The notes beneath the pieces were generated by a model that saw nothing but the letters and a program-made list of their open reading frames with translations, did no database searches and was not told the origin of the DNA. The position numbers were made by a program, and so were the translations under genes. A stretch of DNA of 64,000 bases from a virus (taxonomy: Duplodnaviria > Caudoviricetes): the IMG/VR virus record IMGVR_UViG_2706795094_000001, positions 4,017 to 68,016 of that record; one strand, given 5' to 3'. Every line of letters begins with the position of its first letter. Within the stretch, counting starts at the first letter, position 1. This document shows positions 24,453 through 63,693 of this stretch, piece by piece.

Positions 24453-26704
24453 CGGTCGAGCTGCCGGGGCGGGCACCGACAACCGACGGCGAGCTCGCCC
24501 GCCAATTCCACGAGCGCATTCGCCGACTCGAGAATCCGCGCTCGGTGCGCGTCGGCCCATGGGTCATCGCGACCGACCCGATCACCGGCGACCTCAAAGC
24601 ATCACGTCCCGGTCAGACCCTCATGCTCGGCGGCGATCAGCCCGTCGAGGTGGTCGAGCAGTCGCTCAGCCTGACCAAGTTCGTCACCAAGGACGACCTC
24701 GACGCGGCCCTCGACGGGATCGAGGCGGGCGGCGGCGACAACGATTCGGTGTGGGCGCAGCTCTATGAGAAGCTCACCGGCATCCTGTCGCCGACCAACG
24801 CGCTCAATGCGCTGGCCAATTTCTTTCGGCTTGAGCTCGGCGCACCGATCACCAGCAGCAGGCTGCCGCTGCTGCCGCTGTCGCACATCCGGCCCATATC
24901 TCCGAACTTGCTCACCGACGGATCGTTCGACTACGAGGAAACGCTCTCCGGTTTCCCCGATTGGGACTGGGACGACACCGTAGGACGGAACAAACCGGGC
25001 AGCGCGTACACCGTCGCTGATGGCACCACCCACACGATCCACAGCAACAGCATCGAGGTCGGGCCGGACGACCGGCTCAACGTCGAGGTGTACGCACGTT
25101 GGGCCGGACTGGTGGCCAGCGGCGCGGCCATCAAGCTCGATATCTCGTGCTACCGCGACGACGGCTCGCCAGTTTTCTCCGGTCCGATCACGCTCGACTC
25201 ATTGACGGTGTCCGGCACCGCCTCGGGGTGGACCAAGCTCAGCGTGACGAACTGGGACGTTCCCGACGAGGCCCGGCACGTCGTGGTCGAGTTGACGGTC
25301 ACCAGCGGCGCGACAGCGGGCGTCGTGCACTTCGATGACGCGGGGTGCTTCAAGATCGGCACGATGCCGCAAAGCTATATCTCGGGCCTTGTCGAGGGCC
25401 TCAATGCGTTGTGGCAGGGCATCCAAGCACGGATCGATGACTTTCTCGACCTGCTCGACGTGTTCGGCGGTTTCAACGTCGGCGATCACATCGGGCAGCT
25501 CACCGATGTCGTGACGCGATTGCAGCACCTCAACCCGCTCAACGGACTGTTCGACGCCAGCAAGCTCGGCAACATCGCCAACATCCCGATGATCGCGCAG
25601 GAACGGATCTCGGGTCTGGTCACCGCGCTCAACGAGGCTGGGCAGGGTATCCGCGATGCCATCGTGCAGGCTCTCGGCGGCAGCGGCACCGGGCACAGCA
25701 ACACCGACGTGCTCAACGCGCTGATGAACATTCCGGCCAGCGTCGTCAACACCGCCATTGCGGGCGCGTCGAACATCGAGAACGCGCTACAGCAGGCCAT
25801 CGACTCGGTCATCGCGGGCGCGGGCGATCTCATAGGCAGCGGTTTCGGTTTCGCCGACATGATCGCGCAGCTCACCGGCCTGCGGCGGGCCACCGCCGGT
25901 ACGGCGGCAGCGGTGGTCAACCTACAGTCTCAGGTGGCCAATCTCGACCCGGCAGCCAACAGCGAGGTGGTCGATTTCGGAGAGTTCGCCAACTCGGCGT
26001 CACCGCCCTCGATGTTCACCAAGGTCAGTGACACCGGCGCGGGCAGCATCATCCTGACCAACGGTGTGCTGGCGTGGAACTCGGCTGATGCGGTGGGGCG
26101 CGAGTTCTATCTCTACAACGGCGGCCCGCTACAGACCGATCTTTTCGAGGTGCAAGTTGTTCTGCCCTCGGTGCCCTCACACGGCATTTTCGGTCTCGAC
26201 TCGACCAACTACGTGTATCTCATCGGACGCTCGGATGCCACCGGCAACAACATGGTCGTCGCACGACTCGGGTGGGACGAAGTACGTGTCTACTCGCGCA
26301 ACTCGGGCACCATGACGCAGATCGGTCCGACGATCAGCGCCGATGACATTCTCACCTCGGGGTCGTCGGTATCGTTCAAAGGCGGCACCATCGCCGATCC
26401 ACGCTACTTCACCGTCTCGATCAACGGCGACAAGGTCTACGAGTACAGCGACGAAGCACCAATCACCGTCATCGGCGCGAGCAACCGTTTCTGCGGTCTC
26501 GGACTGGAAAAGGGCAACAACTACGCGACGGGCCGGATCTCGACGTGGGCCATGCTCGATGGCGGATCGTCGGCAGGATCGGGTGTCGTGGCCGGATACA
26601 CCAACGCGGGCCTGACAAACTTGATCCTGTGGAAGGGTACGCAGGCTCAGTACGACGCACTGCCGACCAAGAGCCCGAACGGGATCTACGTGGTCGAGGG
26701 GTGA
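24449..26704 (+). CDS. Minor tail protein with carbohydrate-binding-like domains
   Basis: 751 aa; NLLTDGSF CBM-like start, LamG-like segment, C-terminal QYDALPTKSPNGIY. Confidence 0.8.
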   Translation: MTVELPGRAPTTDGELARQFHERIRRLENPRSVRVGPWVIATDPITGDLKASRPGQTLMLGGDQPVEVVEQSLSLTKFVTKDDLDAALDGIEAGGGDNDSVWAQLYEKLTGILSPTNALNALANFFRLELGAPITSSRLPLLPLSHIRPISPNLLTDGSFDYEETLSGFPDWDWDDTVGRNKPGSAYTVADGTTHTIHSNSIEVGPDDRLNVEVYARWAGLVASGAAIKLDISCYRDDGSPVFSGPITLDSLTVSGTASGWTKLSVTNWDVPDEARHVVVELTVTSGATAGVVHFDDAGCFKIGTMPQSYISGLVEGLNALWQGIQARIDDFLDLLDVFGGFNVGDHIGQLTDVVTRLQHLNPLNGLFDASKLGNIANIPMIAQERISGLVTALNEAGQGIRDAIVQALGGSGTGHSNTDVLNALMNIPASVVNTAIAGASNIENALQQAIDSVIAGAGDLIGSGFGFADMIAQLTGLRRATAGTAAAVVNLQSQVANLDPAANSEVVDFGEFANSASPPSMFTKVSDTGAGSIILTNGVLAWNSADAVGREFYLYNGGPLQTDLFEVQVVLPSVPSHGIFGLDSTNYVYLIGRSDATGNNMVVARLGWDEVRVYSRNSGTMTQIGPTISADDILTSGSSVSFKGGTIADPRYFTVSINGDKVYEYSDEAPITVIGASNRFCGLGLEKGNNYATGRISTWAMLDGGSSAGSGVVAGYTNAGLTNLILWKGTQAQYDALPTKSPNGIYVVEG

Positions 26705-28056: not shown

Positions 28057-29217
28057 GTGCCGTTTGGCTGGAATCCCACACCGCAGATCACCCCGCGTGT
28101 CACACCGCGCGGGTGGTTCAAGGACACGCCAGAGCTGCCCGTCGACCGCGAGATCGGGTGGTGGGCGGTGCTCACCCTCGACGCGGTCGACCTCGGCGAC
28201 GCTGCGCAGACCATGACCCTTGAGGCGCTCAAGTCGCTCGCGCTGGCCAACCTCGCCGCCTCGACGCAATCCCTTGAGCTGCAACAGATCGCGGGCATTT
28301 CGTTCGCCAACATGATCCCGCCCGCCCAAGCGCTCGCGCTCAAGAAAATCGCGCTGCTCAATCTGTCCGGCGTGGCGCTGCCGACGCAGGCGCTCGCGCT
28401 GGCCAAGGTGCTCGGCATCGCGCTGTCGAGCATGGGCATCAGTACGCAGGCTCTCGACCTCGGCAAGGTCGTCACCGTGGCCATGGCGACGGACAGCCCG
28501 GCGGCCCAACTGCTTACGCTCACCAAAAAGGGCGTGCTGTCGCTCAACAGCACCGCGACGAGCACACAGCAGGTGGTGCTCGCGCGGGTGGCTTCGCTGA
28601 TCATGTCGACCTCGCTGGCCACCTCGGTGCAGTCTGGCCTCGCCGTCGGTTTCCCGCCGTTGACAGCGACCACGGTCACGTTCACCAACACCACCAACAT
28701 CCAATCGTGGACGTTCCCGCGCAACGCAGAATGGCTCGCCGTGGTCTGCCTCGGCGGCGGCTGCGGTGGACGCGGCGGCGGCCCTGTGCTCGCGGGCGGT
28801 GGCGGCTATGCGGGGTCGTACGGCACCGTCCTGTTGAGGCGCGGCGTCGACATCCCGTGGTCGACCACGATGTTCTACATGAACGTGGGGCCGGGAAGCG
28901 CCGGGTCGTCGGGCGGATACCTCGTCAGCGACCCCTCGCCGGGCACGGCGTCGCTGTGCACCACCACCGCGCTGGCCACCCTCGCCAGCGGCAGCGGCGG
29001 CGGCCCGAACTACTCGACGCAGCGTGGCCAGGACGCACCCGACCTCAGCTACAACGGGATCTCGGCGGTCGGCGGCAAGGCATCGAGCGGATCGGCGACG
29101 CCGGGCGGTGTGCCCGGCGGCGGCGGCAACGGGGCCAACCCCGGATCGCTCGGCCTACCGGGCGGTGCTGGCGGTGCCGGTGGGCGCGGACAGATATGGG
29201 CGCGAGCATTCCAGTGA
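28057..29217 (+). CDS. Minor tail protein with 20-aa repeats and Gly-rich C-terminus
   Basis: 386 aa; periodic (A/T)QxLxL. Confidence 0.78.
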   Translation: MPFGWNPTPQITPRVTPRGWFKDTPELPVDREIGWWAVLTLDAVDLGDAAQTMTLEALKSLALANLAASTQSLELQQIAGISFANMIPPAQALALKKIALLNLSGVALPTQALALAKVLGIALSSMGISTQALDLGKVVTVAMATDSPAAQLLTLTKKGVLSLNSTATSTQQVVLARVASLIMSTSLATSVQSGLAVGFPPLTATTVTFTNTTNIQSWTFPRNAEWLAVVCLGGGCGGRGGGPVLAGGGGYAGSYGTVLLRRGVDIPWSTTMFYMNVGPGSAGSSGGYLVSDPSPGTASLCTTTALATLASGSGGGPNYSTQRGQDAPDLSYNGISAVGGKASSGSATPGGVPGGGGNGANPGSLGLPGGAGGAGGRGQIWARAFQ

Positions 29218-29247: not shown

Positions 29248-29637
29248 ATGGCCGTCGGACCTACCGCCTACTTGGTGAACAAGCTGCTCGATCACGCGCT
29301 ACGCGGGGTCGCGTACACACCGCCCTCGGTCATCTACTTCAAGGCGCACACCGGCGACCCCGGCGCGGCGGGCGCGAACAACGCGAGTGCGCAGACTGCA
29401 CGCGTGGCGGTCACGTTCCTCGCCGCCTCGGGCGGCACGGTGCTGCTCACCGGTACGCCAGAGATCACGCTCAACGCAACCGAGACGATCACTCACGGAT
29501 CACTGTGGGACGCCGCCGGGCCAACGGGCGGCAACTGCCTGTGGACTGCGCAGGCCACCGTCAGCAAGGGCGGCGTGTCCGGCGACATCATCCGGCTATC
29601 GGGCTTCCAAGTCGGCTTCACCGGCCTCGCAGCGTAA
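29248..29637 (+). CDS. Small tail fibre-associated protein (129 aa)
   Basis: LHTGDP-like motif (AHTGDPG) and TITHGSLWDA, common in actinophage tail genes. Confidence 0.7.
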   Translation: MAVGPTAYLVNKLLDHALRGVAYTPPSVIYFKAHTGDPGAAGANNASAQTARVAVTFLAASGGTVLLTGTPEITLNATETITHGSLWDAAGPTGGNCLWTAQATVSKGGVSGDIIRLSGFQVGFTGLAA

Positions 29638-29645
29638 GGGAGAAC

Positions 29646-30032
29646 ATGACCGCACCGACACCGACCCCTGACTCACAATGGGCTGTGCAATGGGAGGCGT
29701 TCGCGCCCGAGGACAGCAGTGTGATGCCCGAGCGGCCCATCCTGCCCGAGGCACCCAGGTCCGGCACCGACGAGGACACGCCTGAAAACTGGGCGGCCTA
29801 TCAGGAAGCGTATGGGATCTACGTCGAGGCCATGGCTTCCTACGAGAGTCTGCTTGCAGTGCTGCTCGCCGACGATGCCAACTGGCGCACGATCACCAAC
29901 GGTTTCCCCGACGAGGCGCTCGCGCGGCAGATGGTCGGCGTCATCCGCAGCGCCAATGCGGGCAACCCTCAGACGCGTGATTTCCGTCTCGTGTGGTCCG
30001 CGCCCATCGTCTGGCACATCGCGGACGAGTGA
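29646..30032 (+). CDS. Hypothetical protein (128 aa)
   Basis: AAGGGAG RBS before ATG 29646. Confidence 0.7.
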   Translation: MTAPTPTPDSQWAVQWEAFAPEDSSVMPERPILPEAPRSGTDEDTPENWAAYQEAYGIYVEAMASYESLLAVLLADDANWRTITNGFPDEALARQMVGVIRSANAGNPQTRDFRLVWSAPIVWHIADE

Positions 30033-34671: not shown

Positions 34672-34883
34672 CGCCCGCCCCACCAACCGCGACCGGGCCG
34701 CGTGGCGTGCCACGCGTCGATGGTCTCGGGCAGCCACCCCTTGTGCTTGCCGACCTCGACATCGGGCGGCGGCAACTCGATGCCCGACAGCGATCGAACG
34801 GATTTCATGCCGAGGCGCTTGGCGACCTCGTCTCGACTGAGGTACCGAGGCACCGGGGGTGCCTCGTGGGTCTGATCAGTCAT
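34668..34883 (-). CDS. Helix-turn-helix (AlpA/excisionase-like) DNA-binding protein (71 aa)
   Basis: YLSRDEVAKRLG...PPPD...GWLPETIDAW. Confidence 0.8.
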   Translation of the reverse strand: MTDQTHEAPPVPRYLSRDEVAKRLGMKSVRSLSGIELPPPDVEVGKHKGWLPETIDAWHATRPGRGWWGGR

Positions 34884-35305
34884 CGTGCAAACCTCCCCGT
34901 TGTCTGTTTCCCGACAATGGTAAGCGTGATCGGTGCCTCGGCATCGGTCTCGATTGCGGCGCGTCCGGCAACGAGGCGGTCCCATTCGTCTTGAGGTTCG
35001 CCAGAGTTGCTGACAGCGATGGTAATGCCACCGGATGCAATTGCCTCGGCAATGACCTTATCGACCTGCTCAGCGAACTCATCGCTAAGCGCGTCAAGTT
35101 TGCTGATGAGACCGGGAGGGCATTTATCACGTCCTGTCTCGATGTGCTGATAGTCACGGCGGTCCATGCCGAGCCGGGCGGCAAGGTCACGCTGGCTGAG
35201 GCCGAGGTACATCCTGTGTGCGCGCACGAGCTCGCCGAGGCCCTCGGTGTAGGTCGGCGGGTAGACCTCGACGGGTGCCTCGACGGCGGTCTCGGTGGTG
35301 GTCAT
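34880..35305 (-). CDS. XRE-family HTH protein (141 aa)
   Basis: RMYLGLSQRDLAARLGMDRRDYQHIETG. Confidence 0.82.
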   Translation of the reverse strand: MTTTETAVEAPVEVYPPTYTEGLGELVRAHRMYLGLSQRDLAARLGMDRRDYQHIETGRDKCPPGLISKLDALSDEFAEQVDKVIAEAIASGGITIAVSNSGEPQDEWDRLVAGRAAIETDAEAPITLTIVGKQTTGRFAR

Positions 35306-35407
35306 GTGATGTGTCTCCCTGTGGTTGTTGTGGTGGTGGTGAAACAGTGCGGCGAGCCGATACCGGTGGTGCCGGTACCGGCCCGCCTGAGCGGGCCGGT
35401 CGATCAA

Positions 35408-37392: not shown

Positions 37393-38748
37393 ATGACACA
37401 GCCCACCGCATGGCAGCCGCCGCAGAATGTCGGCGATGTCGCCGTGACCGTCGCTCAGGCCAAGGCCAAGCTCAAGGTGTTCAGCTACGGCGCGGCGTTC
37501 AAGACCGAAACGTCGAACGTCTACACCGCCGAGTTCGGCACGGCGCTGCGCACGTTCCAGCAGCGGCGTAATGCCGAGATCCACGAGGGCAAGAAACCCG
37601 GCCCCGTGATGAACACCGATGGTGTGCTCGACTGGGCCACCAAGAAACAGCTCGGCATCCTGCCCGAGCAGACCGCCCCGGCACCACCGCCGGTACCGGC
37701 CAACCGGGCGGCGGCGCTGGTGTTCCGAGGCACCGGCGGCATCATCGGTCAGGATTACGTGAGCCAGGTCTGCCAGCAGGTCGGCCCGATGGTCGAGGAA
37801 ATCAACCCCGAGTTCCCCGCCTCGATGGGCGGGCTGCCGCCGGGTGCGCCGAACCTGCCGAGCGCACGCCAGGCCATCGATATCGGCTACCGGTCCGGCG
37901 CGGCGTGGATCAAGGCAAACCCCTCGCGCAAGTTCGTGCTCGGCGGCTACAGCCTCGGTGAGATCGTGGTGGCCAAGCTGCTCACCGCGCTCTTCTCGCC
38001 GGGCGGCGAGCTCGCGGCGTTCCGCGACAACTACGTGTGCTCGTTCCACATCGGCCCACCGGCCCGCCCGCTCGGCGGTGCGTTCTACGGCGGCACCGCC
38101 GCGCCCGGCGTCGGAATCGCGAGCAACAGGCTCGCCACCGACATCTACGCGCAGCTCGGCCCGAGGGCGTGCTATCTGTGCGACCCCGAGGATATGTATG
38201 GGTCGATCCCCGTACCCGTCGAGGGCGGCACCGGCGACATCATGGAGACCGTCTACGACATGGTCACGACGCTGGCCCTCAACGACTTCCTGAACACGGC
38301 GGCGGCCATGCTGCCGCACATTCTGGAGATCGCACAGGACGCGGGCATTTTCGGGCTGCTCGGCCTCGGCGGCGTCGGACCGGCGACCGGCGGCGGCGGT
38401 CTGCTCGGGGGTCTTCTCGGCGGCGGCCTCGGGGGACTGCTCGGCGGCGGCATGGCCAACCCGGCGGCGCTGCTGGCCAACCCGCTTGCGGCCATCCCGC
38501 TGCTACTTCCGTTGTTCACCTCGGCGCTGCCCGGTCTCATCGCAGGCGTCGGCGGGCCGGGCACCGGCGGTGCGCTCACTGGACCAGCGGCAGCGGCTCA
38601 GGCGGCCATCCTCGGAATGAAATTCCTGTTCGCTGGCACACGCCCGCACATCGAGTACCACATCCGCGAGGTATGGCCCGGTCAGACCTATATCGGTCTC
38701 GCCGTGCAGCACGTCCGAGATTGGGTAGGGCGAGAGCTGCCCGCATAG
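37393..38748 (+). CDS. lysB: Lysin B (PG-binding + cutinase-like esterase)
   Basis: GYSLG nucleophile motif; N-terminal PGBD; follows lysin A. Confidence 0.88.
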   Translation: MTQPTAWQPPQNVGDVAVTVAQAKAKLKVFSYGAAFKTETSNVYTAEFGTALRTFQQRRNAEIHEGKKPGPVMNTDGVLDWATKKQLGILPEQTAPAPPPVPANRAAALVFRGTGGIIGQDYVSQVCQQVGPMVEEINPEFPASMGGLPPGAPNLPSARQAIDIGYRSGAAWIKANPSRKFVLGGYSLGEIVVAKLLTALFSPGGELAAFRDNYVCSFHIGPPARPLGGAFYGGTAAPGVGIASNRLATDIYAQLGPRACYLCDPEDMYGSIPVPVEGGTGDIMETVYDMVTTLALNDFLNTAAAMLPHILEIAQDAGIFGLLGLGGVGPATGGGGLLGGLLGGGLGGLLGGGMANPAALLANPLAAIPLLLPLFTSALPGLIAGVGGPGTGGALTGPAAAAQAAILGMKFLFAGTRPHIEYHIREVWPGQTYIGLAVQHVRDWVGRELPA

Positions 38749-38763
38749 CGGTATAGTGTGCGC

Positions 38764-38833
38764 GGCGGTCCCTTCGTGGTTGTTGGTACCCAACAGCGAG
38801 GCCGGTGTCCTTTGGGGTGGGACACCGGCCTCG
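38764..38833 (+). ncRNA. Candidate small RNA or structured lysB 3' UTR containing an anti-leader/anti-SD sequence
   Basis: TATAGT at 38752-38757; CCCTTCGTGGTTGTTGGT at 38770-38787; two hairpins. Confidence 0.4.
38798..38832. terminator. 13-bp stem between convergent lysin and replication operons
   Basis: GAGGCCGGTGTCC / GGACACCGGCCTC; no U-tract. Confidence 0.75.
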
Positions 38834-38849
38834 ACTGCGTTACAGGGCG

Positions 38850-39470
38850 TTACGCCTTGGCGAGCGACTGCCGCCACTGCTGGTAGAGCGCCTTGTCATC
38901 CTCGCTGCCCGCAACGAGGATGAACGGTGCCGACTGATTCGGCTTCTTGACACCCTTGACGATCCGTCCCAGCACCCACGCGATGCCACGGTCGAGGGCC
39001 TTTTTGCCCTCACGCGCGAGCGCCTTGTTGAACACCATGATGTCGTCAAGACGCTCGCCGACCTCATACGGCTCGCATTCCTCGACCTCGCCGTCCCGGT
39101 TGAGGAAACCGAAGTTGCCGTTGTCCAGCCGAACAGCGGTCTGTGCGTTCGGCGTTCCCGGCTCGGGCACAGTGAGCGGGATGATGTCGAACCGCACGAA
39201 CTCGGATTCTTTGCCGTCCTTGTCGTGCACGGTGGCCATCGTGCCGTACTCGGTGGGGTGCATGAGCACCAACTGCCCGAGGAAAAACGCGGGCTTGTAA
39301 CCGCTGACCCCGGTGGGATCGGCGGCGGCGTACGGGTCGGACCCAACGGGCTTGTCCTCACCGACGTTGGTCACGTCGGGGAGGTCGGCGGGGTCGACCT
39401 TGCCCTTGCTCGGGGCGGGCGCAGCGGCGGTGGCAGCGCCACCCTTGCCTGAAAACGGGCTACCGGCCAT
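38850..39470 (-). CDS. Putative single-stranded DNA-binding protein (206 aa)
   Basis: AAAGGAG RBS; beta-rich sequence ending KPNQSAPFIL; next to exonuclease and helicase. Confidence 0.5.
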   Translation of the reverse strand: MAGSPFSGKGGAATAAAPAPSKGKVDPADLPDVTNVGEDKPVGSDPYAAADPTGVSGYKPAFFLGQLVLMHPTEYGTMATVHDKDGKESEFVRFDIIPLTVPEPGTPNAQTAVRLDNGNFGFLNRDGEVEECEPYEVGERLDDIMVFNKALAREGKKALDRGIAWVLGRIVKGVKKPNQSAPFILVAGSEDDKALYQQWRQSLAKA

Positions 39471-39527: not shown

Positions 39528-40931
39528 TCAGAGCAGCTTTGCAACCGTGGTCGCAAAGTCAGTGAGGGTGTCGTCCCAGACATCCTGATATTCGGTGTAG
39601 ACCCGCTCGCCGTCCTCGGCTGACTCGATAGCGGTCAGAGCGAGGCGTGCCTCGGCGTAGCGCACGGACTGCTTGGTCGGTGCGGGCACGGCGTGCCGGG
39701 GCACCTCGGTCTTGGCCCGGCTGCGCATACGGCGGGTGGTCGAGGATTCGATGAGCGCCTCGGCACCCCACACCGCATCAATCGTGATCGCCGAGGCTTT
39801 CTCGGGGTGATCACTCGGCACGTGCACGAGGATGGCGAACGGGTCGCGCTCGTCGTCAGTCTCGTCGTCGGGGTGCGGGATGCCGATGAGCTTGGGCATA
39901 CGTTCCCAACCGTCACCGGTAGCGTTGAGCACGTGCGGTGCCCACGAGTACACCCCGCCGATCTGGACTGCGAACGCGAGCCACGAATACTGCATGCTGT
40001 CGACCTTGGTGGTCTTGACATCGCCGAGGACGAGCTCTCCGGTCGAGACGATCTGGAAAATTCGGTCGATCTTGCCCGCTGTCGCTTCCTCGCCGAGGTC
40101 ATTGAGCACGGTGCGTTCGACGTACTCCGGTAGCGCCACCAGACCTCGGTGTGCGAGCACCCGGCGGTAGGCCAGCGCGTGAGGCCGGACCATGTCGGGT
40201 AGATCGCGCAGCAGCACCATCCCGAGGTCGAGCGCTTCCAGCCACGCGTGCACGCACTCGCCGAACTCGCGTGCCTCGGCCCCGCCGGTCACGTTGTCGA
40301 TGGTCTCGATGACCCGGTCGATCTCGCCCACCTTGGTGTGGTTGGCGTAGACATCGCGCAACTCGGCGAGCAGGGCGGCGGCGGTGTAGTCCCCGCCCGG
40401 TCCCATCGGTTCGTTGGCCCTGCCGGTGATCTCGCGGTGCACGAGATTGAGCACCGCGCCGACGACGTTGCGGCGGTTCCATTTCGCCAGCCCCGTGGTG
40501 TCCTCGAGTGTCTTGGCCACCGTGGTGGCGCGCGGGTACGAGGTCAATCGGCCCGTCTCGGGGTGCGGCAACATGTACTGGTGCCGACCGTTGTATTTCG
40601 ACGGCGGGCGCGGCGGCTCGGGCGGCAGCGGATAGCGCATCCACTCGGTGTGCCGGGGGTAGAAATCGCCATTCTCATCGATTGCCGTCATGGTGGCTGT
40701 CTCCTGTCGTGGTTGTTGGGTTTCGTGCGTCTGCGGGGCTGTGGGGCCGGTCTGCGGGGCGTCGGGGTCGCCGTCCCACGTGAGCACCGAACCGTCCGGC
40801 GCGATCACGACGCGGTAGTCTGCGTGCGCCTGCTCGGGGTCGGCGGTCCAGCCGTCGCCGTCGGCGGGCCGAAACCACACCGAGCCGTCTGGCTGCCGCC
40901 ACGCGGGGAACTGCCGTGCCACGCTCACCAC
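39528..40931 (-). CDS. PD-(D/E)XK (Cas4/RecB-like) exonuclease; alternative internal start at 40691
   Basis: AGKIDRIF...LGDVKT...Q motifs; GTG 40931 abuts helicase stop; strong RBS before ATG 40691. Confidence 0.8.
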   Translation of the reverse strand: MVSVARQFPAWRQPDGSVWFRPADGDGWTADPEQAHADYRVVIAPDGSVLTWDGDPDAPQTGPTAPQTHETQQPRQETATMTAIDENGDFYPRHTEWMRYPLPPEPPRPPSKYNGRHQYMLPHPETGRLTSYPRATTVAKTLEDTTGLAKWNRRNVVGAVLNLVHREITGRANEPMGPGGDYTAAALLAELRDVYANHTKVGEIDRVIETIDNVTGGAEAREFGECVHAWLEALDLGMVLLRDLPDMVRPHALAYRRVLAHRGLVALPEYVERTVLNDLGEEATAGKIDRIFQIVSTGELVLGDVKTTKVDSMQYSWLAFAVQIGGVYSWAPHVLNATGDGWERMPKLIGIPHPDDETDDERDPFAILVHVPSDHPEKASAITIDAVWGAEALIESSTTRRMRSRAKTEVPRHAVPAPTKQSVRYAEARLALTAIESAEDGERVYTEYQDVWDDTLTDFATTVAKLL

Positions 40932-43681: not shown

Positions 43682-44046
43682 CCGAGCCACCCCGGCTCGT
43701 CGTGGAGCACTGTGGCGTCGGTGACCGGGTAGACCTCGATGCCCTTGCTACGTCGAGGCACCACGTATCCACCGTCGCACGAGGTGGACGCGTAGTACCG
43801 CCCGCCATAGGTCGTGCACGTGAACGGTTTGTAGTAGCTCGGCGACCAGAACTCGCGGTAGCGCGTCCACGATCCATCGGCCCGGCGCGGCGTGTCGCAC
43901 AGGGTGCGGGTGTTCGATCCCCACAAGATCCACAGATCAGTCTTGCAACCGGCGATCTCGTCAGCCGAGGCGGCGGGCGCGGTGGCCAGGGCACCGGCTG
44001 CCGTCATCGCGACGGCAGCCAGTGCGGCCTTGAGACGGCGGCTCAC
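43678..44046 (-). CDS. Predicted secreted protein, CDGP-like (122 aa)
   Basis: Signal peptide ending ASA-DE; CDTPRRADGSWTRYR. Confidence 0.7.
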   Translation of the reverse strand: MSRRLKAALAAVAMTAAGALATAPAASADEIAGCKTDLWILWGSNTRTLCDTPRRADGSWTRYREFWSPSYYKPFTCTTYGGRYYASTSCDGGYVVPRRSKGIEVYPVTDATVLHDEPGWLG

Positions 44047-44333
44047 CACGGGTCGGTGGTTTCGACGTGGTGACGACCGCCACCGCAGCGGACATCGCAG
44101 CGCTTGACGGTCTTGAGCCCGTCCTCGGTCATGACTTTCTTGGGGGTGCCGTCCTCGTTGTAGACGGGCACCCACACCGCCGAGCCGCCGTTGCCGGACG
44201 CACACGCGTGCTTGTAGATCTGGCCCTTGCCGAAACCGTGGTTGTCGCACATCTTGGGCGCGGCGTCGGCGATCCCGGCGGGCGCGAGCGCCACACCGAG
44301 CGCGGCAGCAGCCGCGATGATCAGGGTCTTCAT
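44043..44333 (-). CDS. Predicted secreted Cys-containing protein (96 aa)
   Basis: MKTLIIAAAAALGVALAPAGIADA signal peptide; AAAGGAG RBS. Confidence 0.75.
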   Translation of the reverse strand: MKTLIIAAAAALGVALAPAGIADAAPKMCDNHGFGKGQIYKHACASGNGGSAVWVPVYNEDGTPKKVMTEDGLKTVKRCDVRCGGGRHHVETTDPW

Positions 44334-44379
44334 GGTTGGTCTCCTTTGTGGTTGTTGGTGGTTGGTGCTGCTGGTGATG

Positions 44380-44408: not shown

Positions 44409-47156
44409 CTAGTCCCCGTCGATCACCTCGGCGGCAGCCAACGTGCGAGCCTGTTCGATCCCGACCTGACCGGGGATGTAGCGGCTGCCCGAGGCGGTGC
44501 CGGTGAGCGTCTCAATGAGGTTGAACCGCAGACCCATATCCACCGCACGCTGAATGTGCAGCTTCCAGTATGCGGCGCTGTCCCGACGGCTGCGGGCATA
44601 CGCGTCGGCCTGCACGGCGGTGAGGATCTCCGCGCGCGTGGCACCCTGTGTCGGCAGATCGTTGACGAACTGCCGGATGCGCACGGCGGTCTCGATGACA
44701 GCCTCGGGGCGGGGTCGAGCGAGCACAATTTCTCCCTGCATCGGGTCGACGCTGCCGTTGGGGCCGGTGATCAGCGGGGCCTTGATCCCGGCGTCCTCGT
44801 CCTCGTAGCTGACCATCATCAGTGCGATGGCTTCCTCGAGTGCCTCGGCGTTCTTCTGCTTGGTGGTCATGACTTCCATCGGGCGGCCCGGCAGGCGTCC
44901 ATCGATCATCGCCGACTCGGTGTCCCACGTCGCCGCCCGCACCACGAGCTCGCTGTCGAGGGCACCGTTGAGCGCCGACGATCCTCGACCCTGATCGGTG
45001 TGCGCCTTACTCGTGTGGTGCACTACGCACACACCAGCGCCGGTGAGCTCACGTAGCTTGTCGTAGCGCCGGACCGCGACACCGACATCGGTGGCGCTGT
45101 TCTCTTCAAGACCCGACGACTGACGCGCGAACGTATCGAAGACTACGAGGCCGATCTCGTGCCGGGCGATGTACGCGGCCAGGTCACCCCATGCCTCGTT
45201 GCTGGCCTTGATCAGGATGATCGAGTCGCCGAGCATCAGATCGTTGCCAAGGTCGACATCGTGATTGGCTTCCCACGCGCGCAACCGTTGCACAGCACCG
45301 GCGAGACCCTCACCGGGCAGATACAGCACCTTGGTCTTGAGGGTGCGGCGGCCCTGCCACCGCTTGCCCACCGCGATGTGGCAGGCCATGTCGAGCACCA
45401 CCGACGACTTACCGATGCCGGGCGGCCCGATGATCGAGGTCAGACCACCGTGCTCAAGCAGACCCTCGATGACGTACTCGGGCGGCGGCATATCGCGCCA
45501 ATGCGAGAACGGGGCGATGCGCGGCACACCGCTGTGCGGACTGTCGTAGACATCGGGGTCGGTCTGCTCGGGGTCGGCGGCGGCGTACGGCGATGGTTCG
45601 TCGGCGGGCTCGGCCTTGCCGAAATCGGCAGGCAGATCGCTGAGGTCGTCGGCGTAGCTCGTCGGCGTCGGGCACGGCTCAGGACCGGCGGTGTGCGCGG
45701 TGTTGCACGAGGCGTCGTGCGCGTAGGTGGCGGGCGCGGGCTCGGCGAGGTGCTCGTCTCCCTCGCTGCCGCCCTCGGGCATGTGCCACATGTCGCCGTC
45801 GGCGTCGACCACGAACGCACCTGCCTCGGTGTCGCACACCGGGCAGAACGGTGTCTCGTCGGGCGTCGAGGTCGTCTCAGGTTCAGGCGCGGCGGGCAGC
45901 TCGAAATCTCCGTCTCCGGTCATCGCGTGATCGGGGTCGACCTGCTTGGGTGCGATGTCGGGGTCGACCTCGACTGCCAGATCCGGCGTCAGCCCGATCT
46001 CGTCCATGGCCTTGCCGATGTTGCCCTCGTAGTCGATGAGCGCGACGGCTTGCAACTTGCTGAGGGTCTTGGTGCCCTTGTCGGAGATCCACGCCTCAAA
46101 CGGCTCGCCGGGGTTGTCAGTCCAGATGTGCAGCGGTGCGTTGACCTCGGTGTAGCGGCCCAATGCGCAGCCCGTGTCGTGTGCGGTGGCGCTCTTGGGT
46201 GAGGCGTGGACACCGGGCGCGGTCCAGACCGGGCATCCACACGCATCGGCGCGCGGTGCGGGGGTCCAACCGAGCGGCTCAAGGATCGCTGACCACGGGG
46301 TGGCCTCGGCCCACCCGTCGATGGCCTCGCTGAGCTCACCGTCCTCGCTATCGCGGTGCGCACGCTCGGTGCGCTCGGCCCGGCGCGCGGCGGCCTCACG
46401 GATCGCGTCGAGCAGCCACGGTGCGTCGGTGATCGGGTAGTCGCGACCGACGACCTCGTAAGCACCCTCGGGGCGGGTCGACGGCGGGATGAGCACATAG
46501 CGCTTGTCCCACAGGACTGCGAAACCGTCCTCGCCGCCCCACGTCATCGCGCCGAGGTTGCGCGGCAGCGTCGGAATGATCTCGTCGGGCACGGTGAAGT
46601 AGAAATGCCCGCCGTCGCTGTGTGCCCACGAGCTCGGATCGGCAAGGTCGCCGTCCTTGCCCGCGTGGCCGGGCGTCACCACGGTGGGCGGTGGCACGTC
46701 GTCAATGCCGATGTCCTCGGGCAGTGCGGCCTCGTAGAACCTCTGTAGCTGGGCGGCAGTGTCGCAGTCGACCACGACCAGCGCCGAGCCGCCGACCTCG
46801 ACGGCGACGTTGACCGGCACACCCTCGGGGTACCGCTCGGCGTACAGGGTCAGGTACCGCTTCAAATAGCGGTCGAGCACTGTCTTGTCTGAGGTGGCCA
46901 GCGTGAGACCGGCTGGCGATTTGACTCGCGCCCAGTCCCGTCTACCCGCCTCACGCGCGGCTTCCTGCGCCGCCTTGTCGTCAGCTTTCTTCTTCTGCGG
47001 GGTGCGCAGGTCGACGGGTGCCTTGGAATCGGGCGCGATGAACATGATCGACAGCCCAATATCGGCGGCCTGACGCACAAATGCGCGCACCGCCTCGGGG
47101 TCGCGGTTGTCGATGCCAGCGCCGAGGATGGCGGTGATGGGGGTTGATCCGAGCAC
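44409..47156 (-). CDS. Primase-polymerase / AAA helicase fusion (915 aa)
   Basis: Prim-Pol motifs LVVVDCD, HFYF, YVLIPPS; GPPGIGKS, VFDTFAR, VHHTSK (RepA/AAA_25-like); start GTG 47156 after leader and RBS. Confidence 0.88.
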   Translation of the reverse strand: MLGSTPITAILGAGIDNRDPEAVRAFVRQAADIGLSIMFIAPDSKAPVDLRTPQKKKADDKAAQEAAREAGRRDWARVKSPAGLTLATSDKTVLDRYLKRYLTLYAERYPEGVPVNVAVEVGGSALVVVDCDTAAQLQRFYEAALPEDIGIDDVPPPTVVTPGHAGKDGDLADPSSWAHSDGGHFYFTVPDEIIPTLPRNLGAMTWGGEDGFAVLWDKRYVLIPPSTRPEGAYEVVGRDYPITDAPWLLDAIREAAARRAERTERAHRDSEDGELSEAIDGWAEATPWSAILEPLGWTPAPRADACGCPVWTAPGVHASPKSATAHDTGCALGRYTEVNAPLHIWTDNPGEPFEAWISDKGTKTLSKLQAVALIDYEGNIGKAMDEIGLTPDLAVEVDPDIAPKQVDPDHAMTGDGDFELPAAPEPETTSTPDETPFCPVCDTEAGAFVVDADGDMWHMPEGGSEGDEHLAEPAPATYAHDASCNTAHTAGPEPCPTPTSYADDLSDLPADFGKAEPADEPSPYAAADPEQTDPDVYDSPHSGVPRIAPFSHWRDMPPPEYVIEGLLEHGGLTSIIGPPGIGKSSVVLDMACHIAVGKRWQGRRTLKTKVLYLPGEGLAGAVQRLRAWEANHDVDLGNDLMLGDSIILIKASNEAWGDLAAYIARHEIGLVVFDTFARQSSGLEENSATDVGVAVRRYDKLRELTGAGVCVVHHTSKAHTDQGRGSSALNGALDSELVVRAATWDTESAMIDGRLPGRPMEVMTTKQKNAEALEEAIALMMVSYEDEDAGIKAPLITGPNGSVDPMQGEIVLARPRPEAVIETAVRIRQFVNDLPTQGATRAEILTAVQADAYARSRRDSAAYWKLHIQRAVDMGLRFNLIETLTGTASGSRYIPGQVGIEQARTLAAAEVIDGD

Positions 47157-47294
47157 GTTTGGTTCCTGTTCGTTTCGTGGTTGTTGGTGTGCGGAATGGC
47201 GAGCGTAGCGGGTCATTTCGAGCCCGTCGAGGCACCGCTATGGGTGGGGTGCGACGACTCGATCGGGCCCTACATCTAGGGGATCTCGCCGGTA

Positions 47295-49720: not shown

Positions 49721-50175
49721 GCTGTGGCACCGCCCTGTAGCCATGTGACGAACGTGTCGGCGAGCTCGGTGACGAGATCAGCGGAGACACGTGAGTTGAT
49801 GGCGTCGGCGGCCCGCACGCGGGCGGCGGCGTCGAGGGCGGCCATACGCACCGACACCGGCGGTTGGGCAGGCGGTGTCGACGGGGTGACGACACGGTCG
49901 TCGTTGCCCGGCCCGATGCGCACGACGCGCGCCGGGTAGTTGATCCCGGCCTGCTCGGGGGTGAGCGGTTGCCACCCGCCCGGCGAGATCCACACGACGC
50001 GCTCGCACAGGCACTCGTTGAACTTGCACGCGATGGCATGCGTTTCCGCACCCTCGACCTCGCTGCGCACGTAGGCCACCGCCGTGCTGGTCTCGTCGCC
50101 GACGATGCGCTGCCACTCGATGATCGTGCCGTCGGGCAGCGACTCAAGGTGGTCTTTGTCCCAGATCTCAAGCAT
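49717..50175 (-). CDS. Hypothetical protein (152 aa)
   Basis: ATGA overlap with polA. Confidence 0.7.
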   Translation of the reverse strand: MLEIWDKDHLESLPDGTIIEWQRIVGDETSTAVAYVRSEVEGAETHAIACKFNECLCERVVWISPGGWQPLTPEQAGINYPARVVRIGPGNDDRVVTPSTPPAQPPVSVRMAALDAAARVRAADAINSRVSADLVTELADTFVTWLQGGATA

Positions 50176-50267
50176 CGCGGGCCTCGGTGATGCCGGGATG
50201 GTCCGGCGTCGATTTGGCGGTCATGGTTCGGTTCCTTTCTGTGGTTGTTGGTTGTCGGGGTCTCGGG

Positions 50268-52988: not shown

Positions 52989-53696
52989 ATGACCGACACC
53001 CCTCAGACCGACACCGACGAGGTCGACACCGAGTTCGCCGAGCTCGTCGCAGCCAGCATCGAGGAACGACGGGGCCGGGTGCTGCTCATGCGTTTGGCCG
53101 GATCGACGTTCAAGACCATTGCTCAGGCGGTGGGCGTGTCCATCGGCACCGTGCGCAAGGACTACGACATCGCGCTCGCGGCCCACCTCGATGACCCGCC
53201 CGACATGATGATCGCCCGGCAGCGCGCGGTGATCACCGACATCATGCGTGCCAACTACCCGTCCATGCTCAACGGCGACAAAGAGGCTGCGCAGACCATC
53301 CTCAAGGCGCTCGACCGCGAGGCCAAACTGTTCGGCCTCGACGCACCCACACGTGTGCTCGCTCAGGTCAACAACGACGATTTCGCCGTCGAGGCGGCGC
53401 GATTGATCGAGCACATCCAAAAGATCGACCCCAACGAACTCAAGGAGCTGGCCCGTGCCGGACAACCCCAACAACCACGACCCCAAGATCGTCCCGCTGC
53501 GCAGGACACCGCCGACGAGCCACTCGATGTCGAGCTCGCCGAGGACGGTGCTCAAGGGCCTGAGCGAGATCCTGCGGGATCTGTCGACACGGATACTTCC
53601 GAGCCCGATGTCGAGCCCGCTGCCGCCGAGCCCGCCGCCGAGCCCGATGACGACTACGACGATTGGTCCAACCTCGATGACGACGACATTGCCTGA
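52989..53696 (+). CDS. HTH protein resembling terminase small subunit (235 aa)
   Basis: HTH TFKTIAQAVGVSIGTV; A...L...DREAKLFGLDAP; acidic tail. Confidence 0.6.
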   Translation: MTDTPQTDTDEVDTEFAELVAASIEERRGRVLLMRLAGSTFKTIAQAVGVSIGTVRKDYDIALAAHLDDPPDMMIARQRAVITDIMRANYPSMLNGDKEAAQTILKALDREAKLFGLDAPTRVLAQVNNDDFAVEAARLIEHIQKIDPNELKELARAGQPQQPRPQDRPAAQDTADEPLDVELAEDGAQGPERDPAGSVDTDTSEPDVEPAAAEPAAEPDDDYDDWSNLDDDDIA

Positions 53697-57579: not shown

Positions 57580-57809
57580 TAGGGCACCGCCTCGAAAATG
57601 ACGTTGACCTTCGCGCCCGGCGACAACGTGCGCACGTACGGCACCCCGTCGTGGGTGTGCCCGGCAAGGTAGGTCATGCCGTCGACATCGGTACCGCACC
57701 ACTCGACCACGAGGTAGGCGCGGTGGCGGTGCGGGATATCGACCCACTCGCCCACGGTCACGGTGTCGGCGCGGCGGCTCACCCCGCTCACGCTGCTCAG
57801 ATCACCCAT
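57579..57809 (-). CDS. Hypothetical protein (76 aa)
   Basis: GAGG RBS, overlapping operon. Confidence 0.65.
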   Translation of the reverse strand: MGDLSSVSGVSRRADTVTVGEWVDIPHRHRAYLVVEWCGTDVDGMTYLAGHTHDGVPYVRTLSPGAKVNVIFEAVP

Positions 57810-58188
57810 TGGTCACCTCGACCGTTCGGCGCTTCCTGAGTTCTTCTACGCGTTGCAGTGCCCGCGTAGCGGCGGCCTCGGCCTCGGCGATCTCGGCGTT
57901 GAGGGCGTCCTGTTCGGCGGCGATCACCGCGCACACGAGCTCGTCGGTGTCGCTGAACATCCGCTCATCGAGCTCGATCTCGACGCGGATGAGCGTTCTC
58001 GGCTGCCCGCTGTAGTTGGTGGTCGGCCCGCAGAAGTCCCGCTCGTAGCGTTCTCCCTTACGGTCGACGGTGCGCAGCACCTCGACCTCGACGTGGTCGA
58101 CGGCATGATCGTTGATGTGCTCGTGGAGCACCGAGGCGACGAGCATGCGCACGTTCTGGTCTCGGGCGGTGTGGTTGTTGAATTTCAT
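57802..58188 (-). CDS. Hypothetical protein with C-terminal coiled coil (128 aa)
   Basis: GAGG RBS before ATG 58188. Confidence 0.7.
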   Translation of the reverse strand: MKFNNHTARDQNVRMLVASVLHEHINDHAVDHVEVEVLRTVDRKGERYERDFCGPTTNYSGQPRTLIRVEIELDERMFSDTDELVCAVIAAEQDALNAEIAEAEAAATRALQRVEELRKRRTVEVTNG

Positions 58189-58534: not shown

Positions 58535-58641
58535 GCGATCTGTCGGCGGCAGCGGGCGCAGACCTCGACGTGGCGGCCAGCGCGGGTGATGACGACGGTG
58601 GTGATGTGTGGGCACTTGCCCGGCGCGATAGGTCGGCTCAT
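58531..58641 (-). CDS. Small Cys protein (36 aa)
   Basis: ATGA overlaps at both ends. Confidence 0.55.
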   Translation of the reverse strand: MSRPIAPGKCPHITTVVITRAGRHVEVCARCRRQIA

Positions 58642-58817
58642 GCGAATCTCACCACCACAACGGCATCGGTGTTGTCGATGTCGAGTGAGGCCACCGGTGA
58701 CTCGATGTCAACGACGGGACACTGACCGTAGTCCCCGCCGAGCCACACATCGATCTCAGCGTCGGGGTATTGCTCGGCGAGCGCGGTGAGCTTGGCGGCG
58801 GCGTCGGAGAGTTTCAT
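58638..58817 (-). CDS. Hypothetical protein (59 aa, MKLSDAAAKL...)
   Basis: GAGGGGA RBS; translated by hand. Confidence 0.65.
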   Translation of the reverse strand: MKLSDAAAKLTALAEQYPDAEIDVWLGGDYGQCPVVDIESPVASLDIDNTDAVVVVRFA

Positions 58818-60021: not shown

Positions 60022-60324
60022 TCAGGTCCAGAATCGCCCGTCCCAGTAGGTGACCGACACGGTCTCGCCGGGGTTCAGGTACGGCAGCATGGCGACGATG
60101 TCGCGCTGCGGGGTGGGCTCGAGGCGCTCGACCGGCGTCGACGGTGCGAGGGACATCGTTGTGGTCCCGTGGGTGGTCACCTTGGTGGCGGCAATCTCGA
60201 TGTAGTGGTCTTGGTAGTGCACCTTGCGGGCGCTGTCGACCTGATAGGTCGTGCGACCGGTGAGGGTGCGGATACGGAAGAGGTCGCCGGTCTCAAGCTG
60301 GGAGGCGGTGACGATCTCGCTCAT
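60022..60324 (-). CDS. Hypothetical protein (100 aa)
   Basis: CA-rich leader and RBS; SQLETGD SH3-like start. Confidence 0.75.
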   Translation of the reverse strand: MSEIVTASQLETGDLFRIRTLTGRTTYQVDSARKVHYQDHYIEIAATKVTTHGTTTMSLAPSTPVERLEPTPQRDIVAMLPYLNPGETVSVTYWDGRFWT

Positions 60325-60353
60325 GGTTGTCCTGCTTTCGTGGTTGTTGGTGG

Positions 60354-60622: not shown

Positions 60623-60894
60623 CACCTTAACGTCGAGTCGTGCCGAGCACGCAGAGCTGCCCGGCGCTCACGTCGACGCAGCGCTCGCCGAGGGACCGGC
60701 GAGGCGGCGACGGGAAACCACCCGAGCAGGATGCCGACCTCGTCATGACGTTCCTCGTAGCGCAGCACAAAGTGCTTGAGGCCCCACATCGTGGTGCGCG
60801 CACCGACGACCTTGACATCGCCGGGCATCACCGTGTAGGCCCACGGGCGGTGCCGTCCGCTGCCCACGGTGCCGCGCAATGGCCGCCCGCTCAT
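60619..60894 (-). CDS. Hypothetical protein (91 aa)
   Basis: ATGA overlap. Confidence 0.55.
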   Translation of the reverse strand: MSGRPLRGTVGSGRHRPWAYTVMPGDVKVVGARTTMWGLKHFVLRYEERHDEVGILLGWFPVAASPVPRRALRRRERRAALRARHDSTLRC

Positions 60895-61136
60895 CGCTGC
60901 GCGGCTCTCTTGTCGGCCTCGGCCCGTCGACGGTAGTAGTCGGCGATCTGCCGGGTGAGGTCATGGAGCGCTGGGGTGATGGCGTCGGCGGCGCGCATGT
61001 TGCCGGACGCGTAGAGGATTTCGCGCGCGGTGGCCAGGGTCTCGCGCGCCTTGGACGCTTTCGCTACTCCGGTCGGGCTCGTGATGGTCTGATTGACGTT
61101 GATGACTCGGCTCTGAACTACTGCCTTGGTGCCCAC
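60891..61136 (-). CDS. Hypothetical protein (81 aa)
   Basis: CA-rich leader and RBS before GTG. Confidence 0.7.
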   Translation of the reverse strand: MGTKAVVQSRVINVNQTITSPTGVAKASKARETLATAREILYASGNMRAADAITPALHDLTRQIADYYRRRAEADKRAAQR

Positions 61137-61174
61137 GGTTGTTCCTGCTTTCGTGGTTGTTGGTGGCGGGGTGA

Positions 61175-63290: not shown

Positions 63291-63629
63291 TCAGACCCCC
63301 TCGGCCTTGACGCTGCTGAGCCACAGCATGCCCTCGAGCACGTCCTCGGCGGTGGCGTTGTCACGGTCGATCACCAGCACACGGTTGTGGGTGCCGTGGG
63401 TGTTGTCGTAGCTCGACCCCCACGCCGTGGTGCGGGTCAGCTTGGTCCACGAGATCTGCCCGTAGTCCGACTGCGCATCGAACATGCCGTCGAGCAGCGT
63501 GGCGTCGGTGGACTTGACATCGCGTTGCCAGGTCTGGCCTGCCACCGTGACGTAGATCGGTGCGTCATCCTCGACGGGCACGCGCTGCTGGTATTCGCCC
63601 GTCTTGAAGATCATGGTGATGGTGCTCAT
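63291..63629 (-). CDS. Hypothetical protein (112 aa)
   Basis: CA-rich leader and AGGA RBS. Confidence 0.72.
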   Translation of the reverse strand: MSTITMIFKTGEYQQRVPVEDDAPIYVTVAGQTWQRDVKSTDATLLDGMFDAQSDYGQISWTKLTRTTAWGSSYDNTHGTHNRVLVIDRDNATAEDVLEGMLWLSSVKAEGV

Positions 63630-63693
63630 CGTTTCCTGCTTTCGGTCGTGGTTGTCGGAGGTGTGCGTTGGCCGGACGCACCCCCGGTCGAGA

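Follow-up and report, generated by a model that had tools for sequence, protein, structure and literature searches.

Why does a mycobacteriophage genome carry, between the stop codon and the terminator of its lysin B gene, a lone mirror-oriented copy of a sequence that elsewhere stands mostly just ahead of start codons? The question is raised by virus record IMGVR_UViG_2706795094_000001 (Caudoviricetes; 68,016 bp), of which we analyzed bases 4017-68016, a stretch of 64 kb that is referred to as the window and to which all coordinates below belong unless another genome is named. The region is 99.8% identical to the subcluster B1 mycobacteriophages (Pegunavirus: Colbert, Megatron, Orion, and approximately 190 more). 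We term the repeated sequence the leader tag, its copy behind the lysin B gene (lysB) the orphan, and the plus-strand sequence that mirrors the tag the seed. A first-pass annotation of this DNA had proposed a candidate small RNA (sRNA) here. The analysis described below suggests that the spacer between lysB and a converging gp50-like gene may give rise to a G/U-rich plus-strand RNA of approximately 60-75 nt that pairs with C/A-rich tags next to Shine-Dalgarno (SD) sequences, a proposal to which we assign an even chance of being correct.

Orphan Copy of the Leader Tag Downstream of lysB

The sequence GTGGTTGTTG occurs in 10 exact copies in the window as compared to 0.05 expected, and none of 100 shuffled sequences reached 10; raw counts of 9-mers missed the motif because they are dominated by GC-rich coding repeats. 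On the leftward strand, nine of the 10 copies have the form CAACAACCAC. Of this group, eight are located 14-20 nt before a leftward start codon, seven of them directly preceding an obvious purine-rich SD tract. The ninth is the orphan (38776-38785), which lies between the lysB stop codon and a 13-bp convergent terminator and is the sole copy in mirror orientation within a rightward-transcribed stretch. Read leftward, it continues into GAAGGG and then meets no ATG, GTG, or TTG until ATG 38746, 23 nt away, in agreement with the first-pass annotation, which had singled out this copy for its place in a rightward-transcribed region and for not lying just upstream of a leftward start. The locus is composed of the following features.

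37393..38748, plus strand: lysin B gene (lysB), from the list of open reading frames (ORFs); 99.8% identity to the annotated lysin B of B1 phages
38752..38757, plus strand: TATAGT, a -10-like TANNNT hexamer read from the sequence, 19 nt upstream of the TGGTTGT core
38770..38787, plus strand: seed (anti-leader) CCCTTCGTGGTTGTTGGT, the mirror of the leader tag ACCAACAACCACGAAGGG
38779..38797, plus strand: B1-specific 8-bp hairpin, GTTGTTGG tac CCAACAGC, from minimum-free-energy folds; hides the 3' half of the seed
38798..38832, no strand assigned: GC-rich terminator hairpin of 13 bp, common to the converging lysB and gp50-like genes
38850..39470, minus strand: gp50-like gene, converging on lysB; last gene of the long leftward non-structural block

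The hexamer, the seed, and the 13-bp hairpin are all found where they had been placed originally, and the weak self-pairing at 38779-38797 with its 3-nt loop, also noticed at that stage, is part of the minimum-free-energy fold. The terminator arms, GAGGCCGGTGTCC (38798-38810) and GGACACCGGCCTC (38820-38832), form 13 bp around a 9-nt loop. The seed is thus located between the lysB stop codon (ending at 38748) and lysB's own terminator, as in sRNAs derived from 3' untranslated regions (UTRs), and the same layout was observed in all lineages compared. Since the only hairpin downstream of lysB lies past the seed, any lysA-lysB transcript must cross the seed, and transcription of lysB therefore almost certainly yields RNA that contains the mirror sequence of the tag.

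Conservation of the Orphan in Bclasvirinae

Using gp50 homologs as anchors, we collected lysB-gp50 spacers from 24 IMG/VR loci and from GenBank records, which together represent 17 distinct lineages of cluster B. The lysB DNA is unalignable between subclusters, and gp50 identity goes down to 26-50% at the amino-acid level. The position and orientation of the orphan are kept in B1, B2, B4, B5, Quesadilla, Thonko, LilMcDreamy, and five metagenomic relatives, and in 17 of 17 lineages a TANNNT hexamer, the seed, and a hairpin follow one another in the same order on the plus strand. Absence of the motif from cluster B relatives, which had been named beforehand as a possible refutation of the sRNA proposal, was thus not observed in any of the 17 lineages.

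The hexamer lies 8-26 nt upstream of the core in every lineage (chance per span approximately 0.01-0.02), and TANNNT is rare, with 76 occurrences on the plus strand of the window. It takes the form TATAGT in B1 and TAACCT, TAATCT, TATTCT, TATCCT, TACCCT, TAGCCT, or TAAACT in other lineages; in several of them it overlaps the TAA stop codon of lysB, and in at least eight it is separate. In Mycobacterium smegmatis, TANNNT is the preferred -10 element of SigA, located 6-13 nt upstream of transcription starts and without a conserved -35 partner (PMC6448022). Conservation of this -10-like hexamer suggests that the unit may also have a transcript of its own. The seed, CTTC[G/A/T]TGGTTGTGG, is kept in 23 of the 24 gp50-linked loci, with an anchored pairwise identity of 0.82 as compared to 0.28-0.39 in the flanking blocks.

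The GC-rich hairpin begins 5-15 nt downstream of the seed across the lineages, and in many of them its stem is followed by TTT(T) runs on the plus side, so that an intrinsic terminator is predicted at the 3' end of the putative sRNA. In the 17-lineage alignment, 13 of the 15 terminator pairs have compensatory changes, and the observed covariation was reached in none of 500 shuffles; the stem is 87% paired, whereas versions shifted by 1-3 columns are only 39-47% paired. In Crownjwl (B1), the outermost pair (38798/38832 in the window) is changed from G-C to A-T by a double substitution, which supports the full 13-bp stem. Three B1 genomes with 98-100% identity differ at 3 of 161 positions, two of which constitute a compensatory terminator pair, and are otherwise uninformative. 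A small stem enclosing the seed is 84% paired, which was equaled by none of 500 shuffles, and its shifted versions are 29-53% paired. On the minus strand, its pairing would fall to approximately 60% (a hand count from the pair table), since the stem relies on G.U pairs. As a plus-strand feature this stem is suggestive only, because its inner pairs consist of invariant seed bases.

Two kinds of genes that might use the orphan were considered and rejected. The first, a small leftward gene with the motif as its own leader, had been named as another possible refutation. No conserved leftward start codon or ORF was found behind the orphan in the lineages compared: the nearest start in B1 is 23 nt off, B2 and B5 have no start within 34 nt, a span that runs past the lysB stop, and in B4 an ATG is present leftward of the orphan, but its frame runs antisense through the non-homologous end of lysB. 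The second kind, rightward small ORFs that begin with [G/A/T]TG at a variable position of the seed, cross the non-homologous terminator stems, share only MVVG, and have neither an SD nor a suitably placed -10.

The orphan might also be a gene-less leader module, in which hairpin, C/A tag, and SD-like purines form a terminal "linker" of the operon that has no role in RNA pairing and persists either through recombination or gene conversion among such modules or because it marks a cassette junction. The succession of hairpin, C/A tag, and SD does precede real genes, for instance in Cooper (position 38092 of the stretch examined), and the leaders at 60349 and 61162 share 26 of their first 27 aligned nt, from CCAACAACCAC through GAAAGCAGGA, a likeness that suggests duplication or conversion. 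However, none of at least 24 loci has a gene that uses the orphan, no start codon is conserved there, and the upstream TANNNT is left unexplained; moreover, a neutral remnant would not hold 82% identity next to flanks of approximately 30% and a gp50 of 26-50%. We consider the linker explanation quite unlikely. Judged by its conservation, the orphan is under selection as a plus-strand unit and is no relic.

Leader Tags and Their Co-variation with the Seed

Shared runs of 15 nt (three times), 13, 12, 12, and 10 nt between the orphan and leftward leaders had been reported from the window, and each of them was recovered together with an additional 10-nt copy at 58171-58180. The seed thus has perfect complementarity of 10-15 nt to eight leader sites near ribosome-binding sites. 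These sites and one further tag, all on the minus strand, are listed below.

47174..47188: tag, 15 nt complementary to the seed; precedes the primase-polymerase gene (44409-47156)
60337..60351: tag, 15 nt; precedes ORF 60022-60324
61150..61164: tag, 15 nt; precedes ORF 60891-61136
40707..40719: tag, 13 nt, with SD; precedes ATG 40691 inside the annotated exonuclease gene (39528-40691 from ATG 40691)
44348..44359: tag, 12 nt; precedes ORF 44043-44333, the gene just after primase
50241..50252: tag, 12 nt; precedes the 18-codon ORF 50168-50224
35321..35330: tag, 10 nt; precedes the helix-turn-helix (HTH) gene 34880-35305
58171..58180: tag copy, 10 nt; precedes ORF 57802-58152; no clear SD
63648..63657: one-mismatch tag CGACAACCAC; precedes the DUF7280 gene 63291-63629

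The A-to-G change in the tag at 63648-63657 still permits a G.U pair. Two one-mismatch copies also precede leftward starts and widen the range of tag-to-start distances to 14-21 nt. The tagged genes include those for the primase-polymerase (Prim-Pol and AAA_25 domains, GTG start, and an N-terminus MLGS as in B2, B4, and B5), the exonuclease (at the internal start), the HTH protein, and the DUF7280 protein, as well as several small ORFs.

The tag is not confined to B1. In B2, B4, B5, Quesadilla, Thonko, LilMcDreamy, and metagenomic relatives, the 8-mer ACAACCAC or CACAACCA has 6-11 leftward copies as compared to 0-3 copies on the other strand and 0-3 for reversed-pattern controls, and the tag likewise precedes an SD and a start codon, mostly in genes located after an intergenic gap. 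In the rightward genes that carry it (Colbert gp67 and Phelemich lysA), the tag follows the direction of the gene and is thus inverted. This flip and the tight distance of 14-21 nt to the start codon argue for a role at the RNA level, and judged by its placement the cluster B tag is a leader element that acts in RNA. Ahead of the gene after primase, the tag or the lineage's own variant of it is found in B1, B3, B4, and B5, whereas B2 has a related form, CCACCACCAC; in B1 and B3 this gene encodes a small protein whose N-terminus resembles a signal peptide, and in B2, B4, and B5 it encodes an unrelated protein of approximately 160 aa. As unrelated products stand behind the same tagged leader, the tag marks a position rather than a gene family.

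Comparison of the orphan with the leaders of the same genome indicates that both change together. In B1, CAACAACCAC is present in the orphan and the leaders, and seven sites of the genome share at least 12 nt with the B1 orphan, whereas orphans taken from other lineages reach this length at only 0-1 sites. In the B2 genome, matches were confined to its own CCACCACAACC form (five sites) and the Quesadilla form (twice). In Quesadilla itself, the orphan shares ACAACCATGAAGG with two leaders of its genome, and in its relative G001 this form of the orphan complements SD-ACAACC-ATG start regions, where pairing would cover the start codon. In LilMcDreamy, the 15-nt sequence CCCACCACAACCACG is common to the orphan and two leaders. 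The B3 orphan is the most divergent one, CTCCCAACCGA, and this 11-mer recurs in the leader of the gene after primase. By these matches, seed and leaders are co-varying by lineage.

A rival explanation places the function of the repeat in DNA. Here, CAACAACCAC would be an asymmetric binding site for a phage protein that blocks or modulates leftward transcription, and the orphan, located just past the leftward terminator, would stop read-through antisense to the lysis genes. In its favor, every copy, the orphan included, is oriented alike in the DNA, genes for HTH proteins lie nearby, and several copies lie shortly downstream of -10-like hexamers (TAAGTT 22 nt before 44357; TAATTT 15 nt before 58180, upstream of the copy 58171-58180). 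Sites that follow a changing protein specificity would also give lineage-specific variants. The stoperators of cluster A phages are likewise short, asymmetric, and intergenic, with many copies in one orientation relative to transcription (PMC3029335). On the other hand, stoperators are repressor-binding DNA sites of temperate phages, whereas the cluster B tag tracks the start codon at a tight 14-21 nt, is flipped together with the gene in Colbert gp67 and Phelemich lysA, differs from the L5 and Bxb1 stoperator consensus, and has an orphan with flanks resembling those of an RNA gene. No repressor is annotated in the regions of the B1 records examined, and the abstracts of reports on B1 phages describe them as lytic. 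A DNA site would also leave the conserved TANNNT, the T-tail on the plus side, and the G.U-dependent stem at the orphan unexplained. We regard this explanation, both for the leaders and for the orphan, as unlikely.

Several side observations concern the leaders themselves. The sense-tag leaders of rightward genes are found at positions 11105-11152 (Phelemich lysA) and 18640-18682 (Colbert gp67) of the stretches examined; with the tagged lysA leader of B5, a lysA-lysB mRNA carries complementary stretches of approximately 9 nt in its 5' leader and its 3' UTR. On the plus strand of the window, 53469-53478 is an exact sense CAACAACCAC(GA) that falls within rightward coding sequence and is followed by neither an SD nor a start; the 12-nt match to the leader consensus at this place is unlikely to have arisen by chance. 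The 18-codon ORF at 50168-50224 (MTAKSTPDHPGITEARDA) overlaps the annotated start of the next gene out of frame and may be an upstream ORF or may reflect a problem with the start site or the frame. Another class of repeated leaders on the leftward strand consists of a GC hairpin, GTCAGGCGGGAC(N2-4)CCCGCC, followed directly by SD and start; it is found before many leftward genes of all subclusters, is sometimes joined with the C/A tag, and was seen in the Colbert stretch examined (its positions 26129-26326, 28373-28609, and 29469-29666) as well as in leaders of Cooper, Hosp, and Phelemich.

Predicted Pairing and Possible Mode of Action

The leaders are the strongest predicted duplex partners of the seed in the window, with -25 to -27 kcal/mol against a background of -12.4 kcal/mol (standard deviation 3.1); the genome is GC-rich, and a few unrelated duplex hits also come near -25 kcal/mol. 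Perfect pairing in B1 spans the C/A tag and reaches 3 nt into the purine tract. The first-pass annotation had the CCCUUC end of the RNA pointing into the SD sequences. The perfect pairing does enter the purine tract, but over 3 nt only, and masking of an enhancer or standby region therefore fits better than direct occlusion of SD or AUG.

The putative RNA would be composed of a SigA-type -10 element (TATAGT), a start approximately 7 nt downstream of it, the seed CCCUUCGUGGUUGUUGGU at or near the 5' end, and the intrinsic terminator. It could be either transcribed on its own or be a part of the lysB 3' UTR; the same sequence also serves as the 3' UTR of every lysA-lysB transcript. Its seed exactly mirrors the C/A-rich tag (CCAACAACCAC and the first bases of the purine tract), located 14-21 nt upstream of the start codons of approximately ten non-structural genes that are initiated independently, and 12-15 perfect base pairs would cover the ACA-rich enhancer/standby region and the 5' edge of the SD. 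Such pairing would change the translation, and possibly the stability, of the whole tagged set jointly, with down-regulation as the lysis-gene transcripts build up being the most likely outcome. The production of the RNA, its ends, its timing, the sign of its effect, and any RNase cleavage that follows are what we infer from the sequence.

Several points weigh against this RNA-pairing proposal. The B1 pairing stops at the 5' edge of the SD and does not extend over SD and AUG. The 3' half of the B1 seed is contained in the 8-bp hairpin, where its unpaired probability is near 0; CCCUUCGUG stays free of this hairpin and is a possible toehold. In other lineages the accessibility of the seed is moderate (0.3-0.57), a range that is unreliable because the 3' ends used are imprecise and extend past the terminators. 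A scan of the element for sigma-70 consensus promoters gave no match and no -35, and, to our knowledge, mycobacteria are without Hfq. The co-variation of seed and leaders could equally reflect gene conversion among repeated leader modules, and it could equally reflect one protein that recognizes all copies. Nor is the target set purely early, since lysA of B5 and one rightward gene of Colbert carry the tag as well. Finally, the literature searched contained no cluster B transcriptome or RNA-seq, made no mention of the motif, and described neither the cluster B tag nor any anti-tag RNA.

The constant position of the seed 5-15 nt directly upstream of the terminator is also compatible with an element of the 3' end of the lysis mRNA that acts on stability or termination efficiency and is unrelated to the leaders. 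In a reverse-direction variant of this explanation, abundant early leaders would pair with the lysA-lysB 3' UTR and restrain the lysis genes until early transcription fades; the tagged lysA leader of B5 would in addition allow the 5' and 3' ends of one mRNA to pair. A pure stability element, however, needs neither the 12-15 nt identity with dispersed leaders nor the co-variation, and the reverse-direction variant is still RNA pairing and predicts the same anatomy. We consider both forms very unlikely.

The first-pass annotation had inferred that one phage sRNA silences a dispersed early regulon. This inference is partly supported: the comparative evidence is strong for a plus-strand RNA unit that is kept in 17 of 17 lineages and co-varies with the leaders in B1, B2, B3, Quesadilla, and LilMcDreamy, whereas silencing late in infection would be one possible outcome of its pairing. 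The restriction to early genes is too narrow, because the tag also stands ahead of rightward genes including B5 lysA.

Comparison with Known Regulatory Systems

The proposed RNA has its closest functional parallels among multi-target antisense sRNAs, and whether the candidate is one of this kind is, in our assessment, evenly balanced. GcvB uses a G/U-rich seed to silence ACA motifs that lie immediately before the SD and enhance translation (Yang, Figueroa-Bossi and Bossi 2014, PMC3879156). It shares with the candidate the single G/U-rich seed and the C/A-rich sites adjoining the SD in many mRNAs; its repression by masking an enhancer, and not the SD or AUG, is what would be expected of the candidate as well. 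GcvB is host-encoded, Hfq-dependent, and enterobacterial, whereas the candidate would act on the phage's own genes, has no sequence or structure homology with GcvB, and has a much longer complementarity of 12-15 nt without mismatch.

The c4 RNA of P1/P7 (Rfam C4 RF01695) and the CI RNA of P4 are phage antisense immunity RNAs with repeated targets; c4 pairs at or near ribosome-binding sites, and P4 CI RNA causes termination. They resemble the candidate, as proposed here, in being small phage RNAs that match repeated sites in the phage's own transcripts and control a set of genes. They differ in that they have two targets in one operon, are processed from the transcript that they control, and confer lysogenic immunity, whereas the candidate would have approximately ten dispersed targets on the opposite strand in a lytic phage and has no match in Rfam. 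A scan of 38500-39000 against this database gave best scores of at most 21 bits as compared to gathering scores of 38-93, with E-values of at least 0.2 and only unrelated families among the hits. CpxQ, SroC, and DapZ are sRNAs derived from 3' UTRs by an internal promoter or by processing. They have in common with the candidate a seed that follows the stop codon and lies just upstream of the mRNA's own intrinsic terminator; however, they are Hfq-dependent host RNAs of enterobacteria, whereas the candidate is a phage locus.

Start-associated sequences (SAS) have been described in cluster K mycobacteriophages and in cluster EF Microbacterium phages (Pope et al. 2011, PMC3203893; PMC7302621), and their role was still called unknown in 2024 (PMC11373665). 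SAS and the cluster B tag are both short asymmetric repeats that are found only with non-structural genes, are oriented with the gene near its start codon, mostly accompany genes after an intergenic gap, and are kept across subclusters on unrelated genes. Moreover, each K1 phage has one reverse-oriented SAS that is unlinked to a gene start (PMC3203893), as is the orphan in cluster B. The cluster B tag CCAACAACCAC differs in sequence from the 13-bp SAS consensus GGGATAGGAGCCC; its place is upstream of the SD, with 14-21 nt separating it from the start, whereas an SAS includes the SD and is only 3-9 nt away from the start codon, and no inverted repeat resembling the extended SAS (ESAS) was seen with the tag. 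By sequence and position, the cluster B tag is thus not a member of the SAS group, although it appears to work like one.

In Adephagia (K1), the lone reverse SAS, GGCCTCCTATCCC, is located at 58,682-58,694 of JF704105, in the 430-bp non-coding gap between gp92 and gp93. It constitutes the 10-nt apical loop (CCUCCUAUCC) of a hairpin of approximately 19-20 bp, and the region (approximately 58,640-58,725) has a fold z-score of -7.1. In the predicted fold, this loop looks like an anti-SAS recognition loop, and as an independent parallel it raises the prior for anti-tag RNAs in actinobacteriophages. We tentatively propose, with somewhat less than an even chance of being right, that one master "anti-tag" RNA with its own -10 and terminator is present across Bclasvirinae, and that the lone reverse SAS of K1 is the same device.

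Start Codons Marked by the Tag

The tag also aids annotation, as it points to other starts for the exonuclease, the HTH protein, and the primase-polymerase than those in some deposited B1 records. In the exonuclease gene as annotated in Colbert, the tag, the SD, and ATG 40691 fall within the coding region. The combination of tag, SD, and a TAID N-terminus at this internal start (window 40691-40928) is also present in B5 and LilMcDreamy, and Cooper (B4) has tag and SD at the equivalent internal position with a different N-terminus; ATG 40691 is either the true exonuclease start or the start of a second isoform. For the HTH gene (start region 35305-35400), the tag and SD lead to ATG 35305, whereas the Colbert record starts the homolog at an upstream TTG without SD, and deposited B1 records probably give a wrong start for this gene. 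For the primase-polymerase, the start at GTG 47156 (MLGS) likewise differs from the TTG annotated in Colbert.

Biological Implications

The locus provides a concrete mechanism with exact coordinates for start-associated repeats. If the anti-tag device is common to Bclasvirinae and K1, these repeats of actinobacteriophages, unexplained since 2011, would be address labels for phage antisense RNA. The candidate is testable in M. smegmatis mc2 155, the standard system, and hundreds of laboratories already own suitable phages. If the proposed RNA pairing is true, the candidate would be, as far as the literature searched goes, the first trans-acting regulatory RNA described for a mycobacteriophage, as well as an Hfq-independent multi-target sRNA in mycobacteria, and the orphan and the leaders would constitute a portable tag/anti-tag pair for co-ordinated translational control.

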